Positions 46,970 through 54,800 of a stretch of 64,000 bases of DNA are shown in pieces. The DNA comes from a virus (lineage: Duplodnaviria; Caudoviricetes), in the IMG/VR virus record IMGVR_UViG_3300050336_000170, positions 1 to 64,000 of that record; one strand, given 5' to 3'. The position numbers and the translations under genes were made by a program. The notes under the pieces are model-generated. The model saw only the letters and a program-made list of their open reading frames with translations, was not told where the DNA came from and ran no database searches. Within the stretch, counting starts at the first letter, position 1. Each line of letters begins with the position of its first letter.

Positions 46970-47512
46970 TTATACTGATCCTATTGTTGCTGCAATCACA
47001 ACAGATGTCAAAATATTTCTTAGCCAATTGTCTTTAAGTACTATGAATATATCTTGATCATAAGTACCAGACAGCCTATCCCTATCCCCTATAACAGCGC
47101 ATGGGTGAGTATTTATATGTCTGATAAAAGCATTATACAATATTTCAATTGATTTTTCTTTATTAATTCTACATGTTTCTGCAAAATTTGTTGCCTTATC
47201 AAAAAACCAATCAAGAAATTTATTTGAAGTATAGGCTCTTACTACATAAGATTTATTAATATCTTTTTTTATTTCTTCAACACGAAAAACAGAATTATAT
47301 ATACTATTATCCTCTTCTAATCCTTGGCATACTTCTTCCGATATTGTAATGTATGTAGGATTAAGACGCTTGTTAATATATTTTGCTTTGCATCTTCTTT
47401 GGACATTTTTCAACCATATACTATAAACATTTTTGCCTGTGATAGTATATATCCTATTGAGTCTTGACATTACATTTGCCAATCTCATTTCCATTGTGTA
47501 ATTAATTTGCAT
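46970..47512 (-). CDS. Hypothetical basic protein downstream of antisense-RNA module
   Basis: SD GAAAGGAAG followed by ATG (MQINY). Confidence 0.65.
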   Translation of the reverse strand: MQINYTMEMRLANVMSRLNRIYTITGKNVYSIWLKNVQRRCKAKYINKRLNPTYITISEEVCQGLEEDNSIYNSVFRVEEIKKDINKSYVVRAYTSNKFLDWFFDKATNFAETCRINKEKSIEILYNAFIRHINTHPCAVIGDRDRLSGTYDQDIFIVLKDNWLRNILTSVVIAATIGSV

Positions 47513-47555
47513 TAATATGATACTTCCTTTCAAAAACTTTAGTATAAATTTTTAC

Positions 47556-47688
47556 TTGAAAAGAAGTCTTAGATATATTATAATCAAAAACTGATATTGA
47601 TATCTGAGGCTTCAAATCAGATTAAATGTCCCTAGTAAGACAGACTGTAACTTTGGACGGTGGCAGTCTGTTTTACTTTCTTACTTTT
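47556..47688 (+). ncRNA. Antisense small RNA A (promoter plus two hairpins)
   Basis: TTGAAA-17-TATAAT (47556-47584); hairpin 47591-47620; terminator AGTAAGACAGACTG-loop with CTTTGGACGG-CAGTCTGTTTTACT followed by Ts. Confidence 0.65.
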
Positions 47689-47706
47689 GTTGAAAAAGAC
47701 TATCAA
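47632..47706 (-). CDS. Putative 24-aa leader peptide MIVFFNKSKKVKQTATVQSYSLSY
   Basis: SD AGGAGAGG then TTG; runs across the complement of the RNA A terminator. Confidence 0.4.
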   Translation of the reverse strand: MIVFFNKSKKVKQTATVQSYSLSY

Positions 47707-47724
47707 AAAACCCTCTCCTATATG

Positions 47725-47832
47725 TTTACAAATTTTTACTAATGATGTATAATAATAGCAATTCAGGTGTTGGCTAGACACTTGGAGGCTGGCATGGGCT
47801 ATCTATATTTTTATAGGTAGCTCATGTTTTTT
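47725..47832 (+). ncRNA. Antisense small RNA B
   Basis: TTTACA-17-TATAAT (47725-47753); hairpin CAGGTGT..GACACTTG; terminator GCATGGGCTATCTATA-TTTT-TATAGGTAGCTCATGT followed by a T run. Confidence 0.65.
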
Positions 47833-48049
47833 AAATTGAAAATTCCTTGATAAACTCCTCCCTTGTCATCGTATTTGTTTTTCGGATCACCAATGCGTAA
47901 TATTCCTTTTGCTTTATTCCTGTGTCAATACACCACTTCTTAAAATTCTTATAGTCCTCATCGGGGATTCTGACCGTAAATCCTGTCTCAATAGATGTTT
48001 CGGTATTTCTCTCTATATTACCTTTTTTATCAATATTTGACACCCCCAT
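47831..48049 (-). CDS. Ribbon-helix-helix (CopG/Arc-like) regulator, probably leaderless
   Basis: FTVRIPDEDYKNFKKWC...GIKQKEYY RHH pattern; ATG lies about 6 nt after the -10 of TTGACA-16-GATAAT (48056-48083) with no SD. Confidence 0.6.
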   Translation of the reverse strand: MGVSNIDKKGNIERNTETSIETGFTVRIPDEDYKNFKKWCIDTGIKQKEYYALVIRKTNTMTREEFIKEFSI

Positions 48050-48059
48050 AAAAATATTA

Positions 48060-48421
48060 TCACCAAATCACCATTTTTGTCAATTTTATCTAAACATAAT
48101 AATAGCAAAAATTATTATGTGATTTTTGTAATATATTATGCTTTTGGTATTTATCTCTTATGGGGAAGGAACAGCCAGATCAGACCTCCAATCACTGATA
48201 ATAGTATTGTCCACAGTGGAGAAATAACAGCCATAACAGGGATTACGATAAATAGTAGAGGACTTACACCACTTGTCTTTTCTGTATTCTGCTTCATGTA
48301 TACACCTATCCTTCACTAATACGAATGATAATTGGATATCCTTGCATAATTAATAGATTATTTTTAGAATTTTGTAGATTTTTTGTATTATATAAATAAA
48401 CTACGAGTCACCAAATCACCA
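48060..48421. repeat. Two copies of TCACCAAATCACCA (candidate RHH operator)
   Basis: 48060-48073 (inside the RHH promoter) and 48408-48421. Confidence 0.7.
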
Positions 48422-49670: not shown

Positions 49671-50252
49671 TTTAATTCTCCTTATAAAATTATAGGTTTA
49701 TTGCCATTCTAATTTCTGACCACAATACGGGCATCGTTCTAAAGAGTATGCCCTACTTATATATCCATCATCATTCTCTTCATATTCATAAAATAGAGCC
49801 TTACATCTTGGACATTTAGAATTAGTCCACGCTTCTTGAATAACTGTCTGAGGTTTATTTATATCTATTAACGCCTGTTCATAACCCATATCATAATCTT
49901 TTTTACTCATCGTTCACCTCACAAAAACCTGATTTCATTGTTTTTCAGTAAAATCACTTTGAACATCGCCCAAATGATTAATCATGTTATCAAGTTCAAC
50001 ATAAATTTCACCACTTATTGAATTTATTATTTCTTCTGCTGTTTCACCTTCAAAATAGATACATATTGTCTGATTACCATATGGCAAGAGTGTGTCAATA
50101 TATCGTTTGTTCCAATGAATTTTCTTAATATAAACTTCACCATTATCTAAATAAGGTGCAAAATGGCTTAATACTTCTTCATTTATTTCTCTTTTCATGC
50201 TTTCCTTTCCTGACCAAATCCCGAATTTATCGGGTTACAAAATTGTAACCTT

Positions 50253-51458
50253 TTATGCTACTCGCGTAGACAACGGATGTAAACCTACACCCTCTACCCC
50301 TTCCGCAAAAGCGTTAGGGAATACCTTCATCATTATTTGATAACTACCATTTACGTCAGCGTTAATAATGTGGTCTATTGATTTGAACAAGCCTCTTGTT
50401 ATTCTTCTTGACTTGTCATAGTTTTCTTTACACGGCACTTCACCACTTAAAAAATCTGTACCACTTGTGTACGATTCTTCAGTTGTTATAAACCTAATTC
50501 CGACATTCTGACATTTATACTCTAGCTGCTTTATAAACATTTCATACGGAATAGAAACAAACTTCTGATTAGTTTTCTTACTCATTGCAGATTCTTGTTT
50601 CCATCCCGAATTATAACCGCATACTAAAGTATCTATATCGCTTTCTAAACACAACCTTACTATAAATTTACTTGCTTTATGCATCCAATCTTTAATCTTA
50701 TTATTACGTTTTGTGGTTAACTGCTGTAGTTTGTTACTCCAATGTTTACTGTTCTTTAACATGAGTTCTGACTGTATCTTTGCTTTCTGCTTATTGTAAT
50801 ACTGATTATAAGACTTGATTACGTTACCCTTAATAGCAATAGGCTGTATACCTATGTTATTTGTAATAGTTGCAAAGTTATCAATGCCCAAATCAATACT
50901 TGCTATATTATGAGATTCTGTCGGCTGCTCCGGTATATCGATTTCATAAACGATCTCCATGATATAGTTACTTCCATTCGGTATAAAACGACACTGCATG
51001 AGTTTACCTTGTACTTTTGTTGGAACACTATATCCTTTAAATGGTTTAAAACTTATACGGAATACTTTATCATTGATTGAACATTGAATATTTTTTAGAA
51101 TAAATACCTGTCTACCATCCTTTGCTTTGTATTTAGGCAGTTTTGGTTTGCCTAAGTAACTATCTTTGTGTTTTGACCAATCTTTGATTGCTTTAAAATA
51201 TGAGTTCCATGCTCTATCTAGAAATTTCAAAATATTTTGTGATGCCTGTGACCCTAATTCTTTATAACAATCGGCATTTTGGCACATGTGATCAAGTTTA
51301 TTGTATCTAATCCATTTTTTATTATTAATAAATTCTTGCCTGATCAAATAGTTAGCATAATTATATACGTTCTTTGATCTAAAACAGTATTCATCAACAA
51401 TTTTCCATATTGGATTAGATTCTTTTATTAAATGTCTCTCTGTTCTATTTACTTTCAT
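50253..51458 (-). mobile_element. tnpB: IS200/IS605-family TnpB without tnpA (IS1341-like)
   Basis: SKNVYNYANY, KLPKYK, RuvC-I SIDLGIDN, GYNSGWKQ, EESYTS, RuvC-III INADVNGS, tail AEGVEGVGLHP; hairpin GGTTACA-AAAT-TGTAACC at 50232-50250 just downstream. Confidence 0.92.
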
Positions 51459-51465
51459 GAATTAC

Positions 51466-51578
51466 TTGCAATAAATAAGTCTATACTATAAAATACAAGT
51501 GATAAGACCTACCCAAAAGAAGTCTTGTCTTGTAAAACAGTTGCAATCTTTGGACGGAGGGCGACTGTTTTACTTTTT
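51466..51578 (+). ncRNA. Antisense small RNA C upstream of tnpB
   Basis: TTGCAA-17-TAAAAT (51466-51494); hairpin GATAAGAC..GTCTTGTC; terminator GTAAAACAGTTGC-loop with CTTTGGACGG-GCGACTGTTTTAC followed by T5. Confidence 0.65.
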
Positions 51579-51707
51579 CTGTTCTTCCTTCTGAAGATAC
51601 TCGCTACAAGCAAGTTTAATCAAGGCAGCGGGGGTTATCCCTTTTATCTTAGCCATATCAATAAGACGCTTGTAGAGATCATCAGGAATATCAAGACTCC
51701 TTTTCAT
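51570..51707 (-). CDS. 45-aa CopG-like ribbon-helix-helix protein (not in ORF track)
   Basis: MKRSLDIPDDLYKRLIDMAKIKGITPAALIKLACSEYLQKEEQKK; SD AAGGAGG; promoter TTAACA-17-TATATT with GTTACA/TGTAAC boxes. Confidence 0.8.
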   Translation of the reverse strand: MKRSLDIPDDLYKRLIDMAKIKGITPAALIKLACSEYLQKEEQKK

Positions 51708-51821
51708 GCACCCTCCTTTCTGTAACCTAATATATACCTTTTTTGTTACATTGTTAATAGTTTCCTTAAATTATTGTCCAGATATTTGACGATCAAATTC
51801 CGTTTTTATTGCCTATTTACT

Positions 51822-54800
51822 TCATAACATATGTGATATATATTTCTTTTCAGCATATGTCAAATTTTCAAATAGTGGTCTGTATTTTTCATCTAATCTT
51901 ATAATTTTTTCAATTTGTTCATCTACTTGTGATACAACTTCATTTTTATAAGAATCATCGAAATATTTTGACATAAGTAGACATTCTCTCCTATCCTTAA
52001 TATCGTAAACATTTCTATATTCATTCCCATTAAATACTATTTCACGTACCATATCTTTTACGTCTTTTTTCGTATTATGAAAATGTCTTGAAAAATTTTC
52101 TACGTGATCTATATTTCCACCAGCATAATATTTTGAATAAAATTCTTTACCACATGAATCACATTTCATTGTAACACTCATAACCTTTTCTCCATTCAAA
52201 TCAAACATTTATCGTTATTTAAACTGAATAATATCATCATACACTTTCTTATCATATGTTATAAATTCTACATCTCGCTTACCTAGTGCCGTAAACCATA
52301 CGTGAAACCCCTCTGGTGCATCTATATGATACTGCATTTGCCAGATACGATAATTATTGTCAATCAATTTTTGTTTAATTTCATACCATTCTGCTACTGA
52401 TTTAAGGTCTTTCAGTAATACCACCACTTCCAAAATTGTTTTCTTTAAGACTATTGTACTTGTGGGCATTTGTTTTTTCAATATCAAGTTGAAAATTCTA
52501 CTTGCACACAAAAAGCGAAGTTTGTGAAGTTGTAGATAGTATACTGCTACACATTTATTACGTCAACCCGTTTTATTGGACAGTGATTTTTAATCGCTAA
52601 TTATCTGTATATCGTTTATGATTTTTTCACTAAATCCAACATCTTTTAAAAATTCTTTGAATTTATCTAGTAATATAGGCATTGTGCATTGTTGATTGTC
52701 ATCGATTATTGAGAATAACTTTTCATATTTAGCACCATTGTTGAGTTCACCTTTGAAATAAAAACATACTGTATACATTTTATCACACTCCTAGCAATAC
52801 AAATGCTTTTATCATTTGTAATAATTTTAAATGTTCAGGTTTTTCATCTCGCATTAACTCAGAATTAATTTGCATTTCCAAATCAACAAGTTCTTCAAGA
52901 TCATCAATGCATAACTTCAATTTATCTCTTGCATTATACTTTAATTCATCAATTTTACATGATGATGATAATATCGGAACGTAAAACATTTATATTCTCC
53001 TATATCATTAAGTATCTTTCTTCTCGATAATAAGCAATATCCTTGTAGAATTGTCTATCTGCTTTAGATTCACTATATTGACTGCAAGGATAAAAATAAG
53101 CACAACCATCATAAACATCTCGCCAATATTCTGTTACAATACCGTCTGGTGTAGTATGTTTAACCTTTGTCATATTCTTGACCTAGCCTCCATTACAATT
53201 TGTCTTGCTCTTCCCTCAGAGCATTTCATAGTCTTAGCCAATCCTGCTATTTTACGGTCTTCACTATAATAGCTTTTATCTAAATAACATATTGAACAGT
53301 ATTTGTTACCGTTTTCATCAATGTATTTTACTGTATGACCACATTTACATTTAACACCTTTTCTCATGCTAGGAGGAATAATGTCCATCATATCACCTTT
53401 CATATCTATTACTAATTTATTTTAATTGGCTTATACTCTATGTATACAAGCCTTTTGGCTTGTATTTCTAATACCCCTTTCTATATACTTTCTTGAGGTA
53501 TTTATAAAGTTTATTTACAAAGTGATAGACTGTATAGCCCATACACATATACGCAATAGCATTATATAAATCAAGCGAATTGAAGTATATATATCTTAAA
53601 AGTAATGTTACGTAAATCCAAACACTAAGAGATAGGATTCTCGCCTTTTTCATGAGTATCAACTCCAAAATATATTGTTTACTCTTTTATCATTCCCCAT
53701 TTCTTTTAAATAATTCACTCAATTTAGATTATCGCTTTCAATTAAATAGTAACTATAATGATCATCATCAAAAAACTTCATTATATCGTAACCTTTTTCT
53801 TGCAAGTTTGTTTTACTGTCACTTACATATACTTTATCAATATCTTGACCATTCTTTTGTAAATCTTCAATTACTGATTCATCAAAACCCCATTTTCGTA
53901 AAGTAACTTCAATATCTTCTTGTATAGAGTCAGTTAATTCAATAGTTGGCTCTGCTACAATATCTGCAAATTCATGTAATACTCCATACCCAAGCAATGC
54001 AGTTGCTATTAAACCTGCTGTTGTTATACACCCTGCAACTCGATAAGCTTTCAATTCCTCTCTAGGATTTGTGCATTGCCTCATTGTACCTAATGCAGAA
54101 CAACTTATTACTGTTTCTCCATTACCGTCTAATCCTCTTGATCTACATAACATACAACGTTTACATTCTGGTTTATCATAAAAAGAACATTTATATACAT
54201 AAACCATTACTATACACCTCTTAAATATTCATTCTAATTATACTGCCTTTTCTATCTTTAGTCTACCACAAACTTACAAAATATTCAATTGTGAGTGTCT
54301 ACACTTTTATTATACTTATCTTATGCAATTTTATGCGCTCGCTCTTCAAACCAATCTAGTAAATTCTCATATGCCTCTCCCTCTGTATCACCAGACACTA
54401 TAAAATTACCAAGACTATCATAGTATTCATAATGATCCATTACATGACGCAAAATATAATGCACTATATCACAGTTATATACACTCATACGGTTACTATC
54501 TCCTTTTCTTTTGTTTGATATGGTCTTACCTCTATAAATCTTAATCCATGCTGGTTACATTGATTCTCAGCCTTACAAGCGGCATTATAGATATCATAGC
54601 CATCTATCATAAAGTTATCATACCGGCCTGTACCATCCTGCCTACAAGCAGAATAATAAAACAACAATCCATTTTTAATTAACTGATTTATATTTATAAT
54701 ATTATTCATACGTATTATCCTTCCCGTAAATTTTTCAATGCTTCATTACAAATGCTAACAATTACGTCTTCTGCTTCTTGTGTCGTGATATTATCACTAT

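Follow-up and report, generated by a model that had tools for sequence, protein, structure and literature searches.

How might a phage keep in check, and pass on, an RNA-guided nuclease gene that has no transposase beside it? The question is raised by a tnpB cassette in the IMG/VR virus record IMGVR_UViG_3300050336_000170 (Duplodnaviria; Caudoviricetes), a 131.6-kb 'provirus' record from the metagenome of an anaerobic digester; its first 64 kb form the window analysed here, which has a G+C of ~30% and nearly all its genes on the minus strand. On that strand, between a 128-aa gene and an 87-aa gene, a 45-aa ribbon-helix-helix (RHH) open reading frame (ORF) is followed by a 111-nt spacer and then by a 401-aa tnpB. 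An earlier note, made from the sequence alone, had listed the RHH gene, an antisense unit, tnpB, repeated boxes and flanking sites; every one of them was found where it had been placed, and the observation as first noted is confirmed. The genes, the conserved omegaRNA structure, an antisense hairpin family, the junction dyads and the catalytic residues were all computed directly. Our reading, which we hold tentatively and put just short of an even chance, is that a transposase-less TnpB-omegaRNA cassette sits between two phage junction dyads, as cargo whose expression is governed by a control module of the phage immunity type.

The TnpB nuclease and its omegaRNA

The nuclease gene and the RNA encoded at its 3′ end comprise the following features.

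50253..51458, minus strand: tnpB, 401 aa, lacking the zinc finger and with its RuvC-II glutamate rearranged (Pfam, PDB sequence matches, homologues)
50213..50325, minus strand: omegaRNA scaffold, modelled part plus tail (covariance model R1)
50320-50297, minus strand: hairpin P1
50292-50275, minus strand: hairpin P2
50269-50258, minus strand: hairpin P3, with a GNRA loop, formed by the last tnpB codons
50250-50233, minus strand: hairpin P4, just past the tnpB stop

The 401-aa protein carries both domains expected of a TnpB, the OrfB_IS605 RuvC domain (PF01385, 73.1 bits) and the C-terminal Cas12f1-like TNB domain (PF07282, 36.5 bits), each exceeding its Pfam cut-off, and in PDB sequence comparison it aligns with the ISDra2 TnpB structures 8EXA and 8H1J. 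More than 7500 homologue matches were found, two of them named as from Bacilli. D189, E328 (TEESYTS) and D368 (NADVNG) are invariant in 45-118 homologues, and the canonical RuvC-II glutamate position of the ISDra2 alignment is occupied by N283 (GYNSGWKQ). A catalytic D-E-D triad therefore appears to be present with E328 at an alternative position, a site described for Fanzor and for several rearranged TnpB branches, part of which are enriched in viruses (PMC10691335; PMC13565253). Between RuvC-II and RuvC-III we found no cysteine pairs of a C4 zinc finger, TSGTDFLSG standing where TSxxCxxCG is expected; as loss of the zinc finger is documented for large TnpB branches (PMC10691335), this does not exclude TnpB membership. 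Judged by these residues, TnpB looks like an active nuclease with a rearranged glutamate. A TldR-type nuclease-dead repressor is ruled out by the invariance of D189, E328 and D368.

Four hairpins common to every relative span the final 75 nt of the ORF and the 40 nt beyond it. A covariance model (R1) built from the window and one relative, L024, scores 139.8 bits at the window and finds 59 matches in the relatives' loci, mostly at the tnpB 3′ end and a few elsewhere. In the R1 alignment, which was fitted to the model and so favours the structure, 90.6% of cells are paired and both-side changes occur in 24 of 26 pairs, a level reached by none of 500 shuffles; slid controls gave far lower scores. 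Like a TnpB omegaRNA, the modelled RNA is structured, shares sequence with the 3′ end of the gene and continues to the right end of the element. The spacer between the RHH gene and tnpB was also considered as a degenerate omegaRNA scaffold and rejected, R1 scoring at most 6.5 bits there.

R1 also matched elsewhere among the relatives. In L004 (2816-2985) and L026 (1772-1942), and also in L017 and L029, three 37-nt repeats with 29-31-nt spacers lie directly upstream of a TnpB of 409-420 aa that is 59% identical to the window TnpB, and in L004 an extra omegaRNA-like scaffold (2715-2822) ends at the first repeat. The L004/L026 arrays look like the published TranC type of transposon-CRISPR intermediate.

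The RHH gene, its promoter match and the predicted antisense RNA in the leader

Upstream of tnpB lie a small regulator gene, a promoter match for a transcript of both genes, and a predicted RNA on the opposite strand.

51570..51707, minus strand: RHH gene (Arc/CopG-type), 45 aa, behind AGGAGG (Pfam and homologues)
51729..51757, minus strand: RHH-tnpB promoter match TTAACA-17-TATATT, 10/12, the best in 49900-52300
51721..51750, no strand assigned: inverted boxes TGTAAC-N18-GTTACA, candidate RHH operator, just after the -35 and just after the -10
51466..51494, plus strand: antisense promoter match TTGCAA-17-TAAAAT, its -35 lying 8 nt from the tnpB ATG, directed away from tnpB
51500..51590, plus strand: predicted counter-transcript 'C', ~90 nt (promoter match, fold, U-tract)
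51501-51529, plus strand: hairpin 1 of the counter-transcript
51532-51573, plus strand: terminator hairpin, apical UCUUUGGACGGAGG, then a U-tract

As had been noted earlier, tnpB has neither an obvious Shine-Dalgarno sequence before its ATG nor a tnpA within the unit. A promoter match of its own is likewise missing, and tnpB and the RHH gene have no dyad between them, so that tnpB would depend on the RHH promoter. In L021 (150-197), the closest retrievable relative (74% identity), tnpB likewise lacks a Shine-Dalgarno sequence and its ATG follows the stop of the upstream ORF by 3 nt, a geometry that suggests translational coupling in place of a ribosome site of its own.

The 45-aa protein matches Pfam RHH_5 with an E of 7e-4, which is below the cut-off of that family; RHH_5/RHH_1 is recognised in seven homologues of 73-89% identity, and the N-terminal strand KRSLDIPD does not vary. 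Its weak matches include an annotated Arc-like repressor of Clostridium phage phiMMP01, and the similarity to CopG of small Lactiplantibacillus plasmids is weak as well (42% identity over 38 residues, E 0.04). The DNA of the RHH gene and leader gave no blastn match among phages or plasmids. The boxes that the earlier note had seen in the RHH promoter and after the tnpB stop are both there, each unique in the window: TGTAAC-N18-GTTACA occurs once against 0.09 expected, and GTTACA-N4-TGTAAC (50234-50249) once against 0.22 expected. The closest retrievable RHH homologue, 75% identical, in an Acidaminococcales metagenome-assembled genome (L083), has the same geometry of -35, 17-nt spacer, -10, one nucleotide and GGTTACA, and this conservation of promoter and box supports an operator; no tnpB follows the RHH gene there. 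The heptamer GGTTACA makes up both arms of P4 (50233-50250) and also stands at the start site of the RHH promoter (51721-51727). The RHH protein might bind at the right end of the cassette, in P4, as well.

On the opposite strand, the predicted counter-transcript would be complementary to the spacer between the RHH gene and tnpB as well as to the final RHH codons, and its two-hairpin fold on the plus strand has an energy of -29.3 kcal/mol (z -3.6 to -3.7). The antisense promoter match and the predicted two-hairpin RNA that had been described at this place were found, and they are backed by a paralogue in the same window and by homologues in other phages, which have the loop in common and whose stems covary. 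The paralogue belongs to a second module, 3.9 kb away from the hairpin of the tnpB unit.

47556..47840, plus strand: paralogous control module upstream of a 187-aa gene (promoters, folds, common loop)
47556-47584 and 47639-47673, plus strand: promoter and terminator of antisense unit A, with loop CTTTGGACGG
47725-47753 and 47791-47828, plus strand: promoter and terminator of antisense unit B

Units A and B each have an 11/12 promoter, two hairpins and a U-tail, with fold z-scores of -5.6 and -6.2. The 10-nt loop core of unit A is identical to that of the tnpB unit, and its stem differs by three double compensatory changes; hairpins with the CTTTGGACGG loop occur in two copies only in the genome, and a model of them (R2) finds none but those two in the window. 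The second module (46970-48100) also holds a 72-aa gene whose strong promoter match TTGACA-16-GATAAT (48083-48056) ends a few nt before its ATG, and its cargo, the 187-aa gene, has no known function. Pfam assigns no RHH domain to the 72-aa protein, whose similarity to the 45-aa RHH is confined to 12 residues.

The loop consensus (A/U)CUUUGGACGG(U/A)GG is found in the paralogue and in at least ten hairpins of other phage contigs (L095, L114, L128, L181, L219, L298, L309, L328, L329 and L333), with stems of 8-16 bp whose sequences are wholly different yet fully paired, all followed by U-tails. Among the viral contigs, a hairpin with a U-tail surrounds 22 of the 119 motif hits on the hairpin strand; on the opposite strand none of 116 hits has one. 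In five aligned members pairs form at all 12 positions and 10 of the 12 covary, and in each of the seven members that were checked the loop motif is preceded, at 28-75 nt, by a promoter match whose spacer is 17 nt long. These hairpins sit opposite the 3′ ends of small regulator genes, which by eye are RHH-like in L095 (with weak Pfam support), L114 and L219 and helix-turn-helix-like in L298 and L309; the cargo is a P22-type antirepressor in L095 (ANT and P22_AR_N domains) and an integrase in L181. Because the conserved loop recurs beside unrelated cargo in this and other phages, the hairpin is not the end of an insertion sequence (IS). The conserved-loop hairpins may represent an undescribed class of phage regulatory small RNA. 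Searched against Rfam, the counter-transcript gives a full-length match to ctRNA_pT181 (RF00242) with a similar apical sequence, at 40.7 bits against a gathering threshold of 56. Membership in ctRNA_pT181 was rejected, as the score is below threshold and neither the paralogue nor five homologue-bearing loci match; in L095, L114, L128, L181 and L219 no RF00242 or other Rfam small-RNA match was found.

If these elements work together as their layout suggests, a single promoter (51757-51729) would give a transcript carrying the RHH gene, the 111-nt leader, tnpB and the omegaRNA, and the 45-aa RHH protein would bind the TGTAAC/GTTACA boxes and shut its own promoter. The ~90-nt counter-transcript would start beside the tnpB start codon, end in a hairpin at the RHH stop codon, pair with the leader and lower tnpB expression. 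The start codon lies outside it, and so its route would be one other than hiding the ribosome site: kissing-loop pairing followed by cleavage or attenuation, or polymerase collision. The claim that this TnpB is tightly regulated is well motivated, and it is unproven.

Junction dyads, the candidate guide and the possible spread of the cassette

The borders of the cassette and the sequence next to the omegaRNA are laid out as follows.

51822, minus strand: stop of the upstream 128-aa gene
51792..51809, no strand assigned: left dyad, on the gene strand ATAAAA-ACGGAA-TTTGAT, 1 mismatch to the ATAAAA-N6-TTTTAT family
50213..50230, no strand assigned: right dyad, on the gene strand ATAAAT-TCGGGA-TTTGGT, 3 mismatches, directly after P4
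50193..50224, minus strand: candidate guide, starting at 50224 (in the dyad spacer) or 50212 (after the dyad), where similarity breaks in relatives
50198, minus strand: ATG of the downstream 87-aa gene

The two palindromes said to flank the unit are indeed members of one enriched dyad family: ATAAAA-N6-TTTTAT with at most 2 mismatches has 89 matches in the window against 51 ± 6.6 in shuffles, and such dyads bracket many non-transposon genes in the window. The left dyad lies 13 nt past the stop of the 128-aa gene and overlaps the palindrome ATTTGA-tcg-TCAAAT (51784-51798), and the right dyad, which belongs to a recurring ACCAAA...TTTAT variant, is separated by 14 nt from the ATG of the next gene. 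The sequence CGGRATTTGRTC has only two copies in the whole genome, one per flank. Contigs compared over the stretch showed no alternative joint. From flank to flank, 20 of 28 nt agree, which by our estimate is marginally above chance; a 28-nt direct repeat left as a target duplication was considered and rejected (estimated chance ~0.02-0.06, and the relatives lack matching spacers).

The same arrangement is seen among the relatives, in which P4 is followed by A(A/T)NAAT, six variable bases and TTTNNT. A dyad with at most 2 mismatches lies within 60 nt past the tnpB stop in 17 of 51 relatives against 7.8% of shuffles, by eye right after P4, and many relatives also have, again by eye, a dyad 24-32 nt before the tnpB start codon; the tnpB cassettes of this clade therefore sit between dyads. 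A 'CGG..TTTGG' motif was tried as a left-end mark of the family and dropped, being present in only one of ~55 upstream regions.

Where the guide starts can be read from relatives that have parted company. Between L007 and L036 (94% identical) similarity is lost at the border of the first dyad arm and the spacer, and L007 and L079, which are 99.6% identical over 1671 nt in two different contexts, diverge only after the second dyad arm; the guide would therefore start at 50224 or at 50212. The candidate guide spans the Shine-Dalgarno sequence and ATG of the 87-aa gene. The suggestion that the guide takes in the junction site and the next cassette is plausible. As the scaffold hairpins end with P4 at 50233, the junction site and the next gene's ribosome-binding site very probably form part of the guide or come immediately before it. 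No match to the guide was found elsewhere in the genome, the nearest sites having at least 4 mismatches in 16 nt from a 50224 start, or 3 from a 50212 start.

The shared 1671-nt unit (L007:2566-4235 and L079:1565-3235) holds a divergent RHH-like gene and tnpB, and beyond the RHH-like gene a second, inverted omegaRNA scaffold, so that scaffolds at both ends point outward; the unit may carry two guides. Its near identity in two contexts indicates that these relatives have recently been mobile. Divergent RHH-like genes lie directly upstream of tnpB in three sub-lineages other than that of the window (L034, L007/L079 and L033/L037).

On this reading an active TnpB would carry an omegaRNA with a scaffold that closes with P4 and the first dyad arm; the guide would be supplied by the adjoining junction together with the next gene's ribosome site. 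Given that guide, the natural target would be the same junction in a sibling phage, or in an excised copy, that lacks the cassette, and cutting the empty junction would lead to the cassette being copied in by recombination, that is, to homing. A bolder form of this proposal, which we regard as unlikely, is a regulated RNA-guided homing element for SPbeta-like phage dyads, with the new (A/U)CUUUGGACGG(U/A)GG counter-transcript family as an Arc-partnered safety switch. Here the first dyad arm would be both the transposon-associated motif (TAM) and the end of the scaffold, the 6-nt 'address' spacer, second arm and next ribosome site would be the guide, and TnpB would cut the same slot in a co-infecting sibling phage without the cassette. 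The switch would be portable across hazardous cargo (antirepressor, integrase, nuclease), and in this phage it would limit TnpB to a short window after infection. The link between omegaRNA tail and dyad offers a concrete, testable model in which TnpB spreads among phages by homing without a transposase.

The cassette could instead be an ordinary Arc-carrying, non-autonomous IS605 insertion sequence, moved in trans by a resident Y1 TnpA, with hairpins that are non-regulatory terminators or left-end structures. Elements of the Arc-tnpB kind are published (bioRxiv 10.64898/2026.09.24.754181), the mobile unit of L007 and L079 includes the RHH gene, the AT-rich flank motif fits IS605 target and TAM preferences (PMC13565253), and two Y1 tnpA genes are present in the same genome, at 85.8 and 106.7 kb, each adjoining a distant tnpB gene. 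These two pairs (85759-86969 and 106704-108001 of the genome) are complete IS605-type elements. However, the TnpBs of these elements share no more than 24-29% identity with that of the cassette, the conserved-loop hairpin recurs beside unrelated cargo as described above, and the dyads are the same as those around non-transposon genes. An autonomous IS605 element would have an adjacent tnpA, and none is present; the right end has its hairpin P4, but no left-end hairpin resembling it was found. We consider this explanation unlikely.

The earlier note had taken the gene to be a domesticated TnpB, and in that case the phage would use it against other DNA, as a weapon or a regulator, with a guide set by the cassette that follows. 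Tight two-layer control would suit a dangerous effector, TnpB-derived repressors (PMC10705468) and CRISPR-linked TnpBs (TranC, PMC13565253) exist, and L004 and L026 carry their mini-array of 37-nt repeats directly upstream of tnpB. No array is present at the studied locus, however, and the catalytic residues are intact, which does not fit a TldR-type repressor. Against domestication speak a catalytic triad that never varies and keeps its rearranged form, a canonical omegaRNA, a predicted guide drawn from the flank of the gene itself and lacking a second target in the genome, and the recent movement of relatives; homing accounts for the same facts without domestication. A domesticated effector is very unlikely in our view.

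We give still less credence to a toxin-antitoxin-like pair, a very unlikely arrangement in which TnpB would be the toxin and the RHH protein an antitoxin that binds TnpB or its RNA complex. The order of a small RHH gene and then a nuclease, together with autoregulation, is typical of such pairs, and the model has been proposed for archaeal RHH/MazE-TnpB (PMC10691335) and is mentioned in PMC13565253. But that archaeal clade has a histidine in place of the RuvC-III aspartate, whereas D368 is kept here, the phage genome, the one genome searched, offers no target for the predicted guide, and a 111-nt structured spacer with an antisense promoter is not a toxin-antitoxin feature.

Several points weigh against the regulated cassette that we prefer. 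The complementarity of the counter-transcript ends ~43 nt before the tnpB ATG (51458), so that ribosome-site occlusion of the P22 or pMV158 kind does not apply, and no convincing attenuator terminator was seen in the sense leader. Members of the hairpin family were chosen with a hairpin filter, which inflates their paired fraction. The border of scaffold and guide is uncertain by 12 nt, and the left end of the element is undefined. Among the sequencing runs searched, the stretch is listed for the source DNA run only, and for no RNA run. The flanking 128-aa and 87-aa genes have no relatives in the viral contigs, and no empty site was found. Neither this RHH gene nor this hairpin occurs in any of the ~80 loci with TnpB relatives, and no locus that carries the hairpin has a tnpB; the combination is unique so far and could therefore be a recent accident of cassette shuffling.

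This last point leads to a further explanation, in which the RHH gene and antisense RNA are a self-contained phage regulatory unit and tnpB has landed behind it without being meaningfully regulated. It would agree with the uniqueness of the combination among all loci examined and with L083, the closest retrievable RHH homologue, where no tnpB follows. On the other side stands the apparent dependence of tnpB on the RHH promoter, the gene having no promoter match, Shine-Dalgarno sequence or separating dyad of its own, and a 2090-nt ENA contig that is the longest listed both for a 77%-identical homologue of the RHH protein and for a 71%-identical one of TnpB, which suggests a second RHH-tnpB instance. 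Chance landing is distinctly unlikely on this balance, and the RHH-hairpin-tnpB combination may be a small lineage or a one-off.

Comparison with known control modules and TnpB branches

The closest published counterparts of the RHH gene are the Arc proteins of IS605 elements, which are shown repressors of the transposon promoter (Moon, Zedaveinyte, Wiegand and Sternberg, bioRxiv 2026, 10.64898/2026.09.24.754181). As in those elements, the RHH gene adjoins tnpB and the candidate boxes overlap the promoter that would drive it; here the RHH gene lies between the two dyads, with the left border undefined. The relatives L007/L079, L033/L037 and L034 show the divergent arc-tnpB arrangement known from that work, with inverted repeats in the shared promoter region. 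At the locus studied here, by contrast, RHH and tnpB are co-directional in one operon without tnpA and with a predicted counter-transcript between them, and the accessible text of the preprint mentions no antisense RNA layer.

A second counterpart is the immI region of phage P22, in which Arc and the sar antisense RNA control ant (PMC2629481). Here too an Arc-type RHH gene comes first, a predicted antisense gene convergent with the operon promoter lies in the gap before the cargo, and its RNA would end at the end of the RHH gene. The cargo is likewise one in need of tight control, and in L095 the homologous module controls a P22-type antirepressor. The sar RNA of P22 covers the ant ribosome site; the RNA predicted here starts at ~51500 and leaves the ATG at 51458 uncovered, and among the loci with the module an antirepressor is found only in L095. 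Unlike in P22, the cargo here is tnpB, and neither Rfam sar similarity nor a Mnt-like second repressor was found.

Plasmid copy control of the pMV158 copG-RNAII-repB or pT181 kind, to which the earlier note had likened the locus, resembles it in the 45-aa CopG-like protein, the two-hairpin counter-transcript with its U-tail and a downstream gene that lacks a good ribosome site, but differs in having a rep gene and an attenuator. With no Rep gene, a sub-threshold ctRNA_pT181 match and weak similarity to CopG, 'plasmid-style' holds as an analogy only. As an analogy, the arc-sar-ant layout of phage P22 fits better than a plasmid replicon layout.

The nuclease itself resembles the virus-enriched RIIr TnpB branches (Altae-Tran et al. 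2023, PMC10691335), in which another residue stands at the canonical glutamate position and an alternative glutamate is found a few residues ahead of where the zinc finger has been lost. It too is a viral gene, here without tnpA and with an omegaRNA tail running into an ATAAAA-N6-TTTTAT-type dyad; the added control by RHH protein and antisense RNA that is proposed here was not reported for those branches. A pairing of RHH/MazE with TnpB has been described in archaea, with the RuvC-III aspartate replaced by histidine (PMC10691335); at the present locus D368 is kept and the context is a low-G+C phage.

The study of how TnpB is restrained is just beginning, Arc repression having first been reported in 2026. 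If the antisense RNA is real, it adds an RNA layer to the control of TnpB and would show that phages can plug an RNA-guided nuclease into the kind of switch that they use for antirepressors. The pairing of an RHH gene with TnpB is already published, and the putative antisense control of tnpB is new and, on the sequences compared, seen only here.

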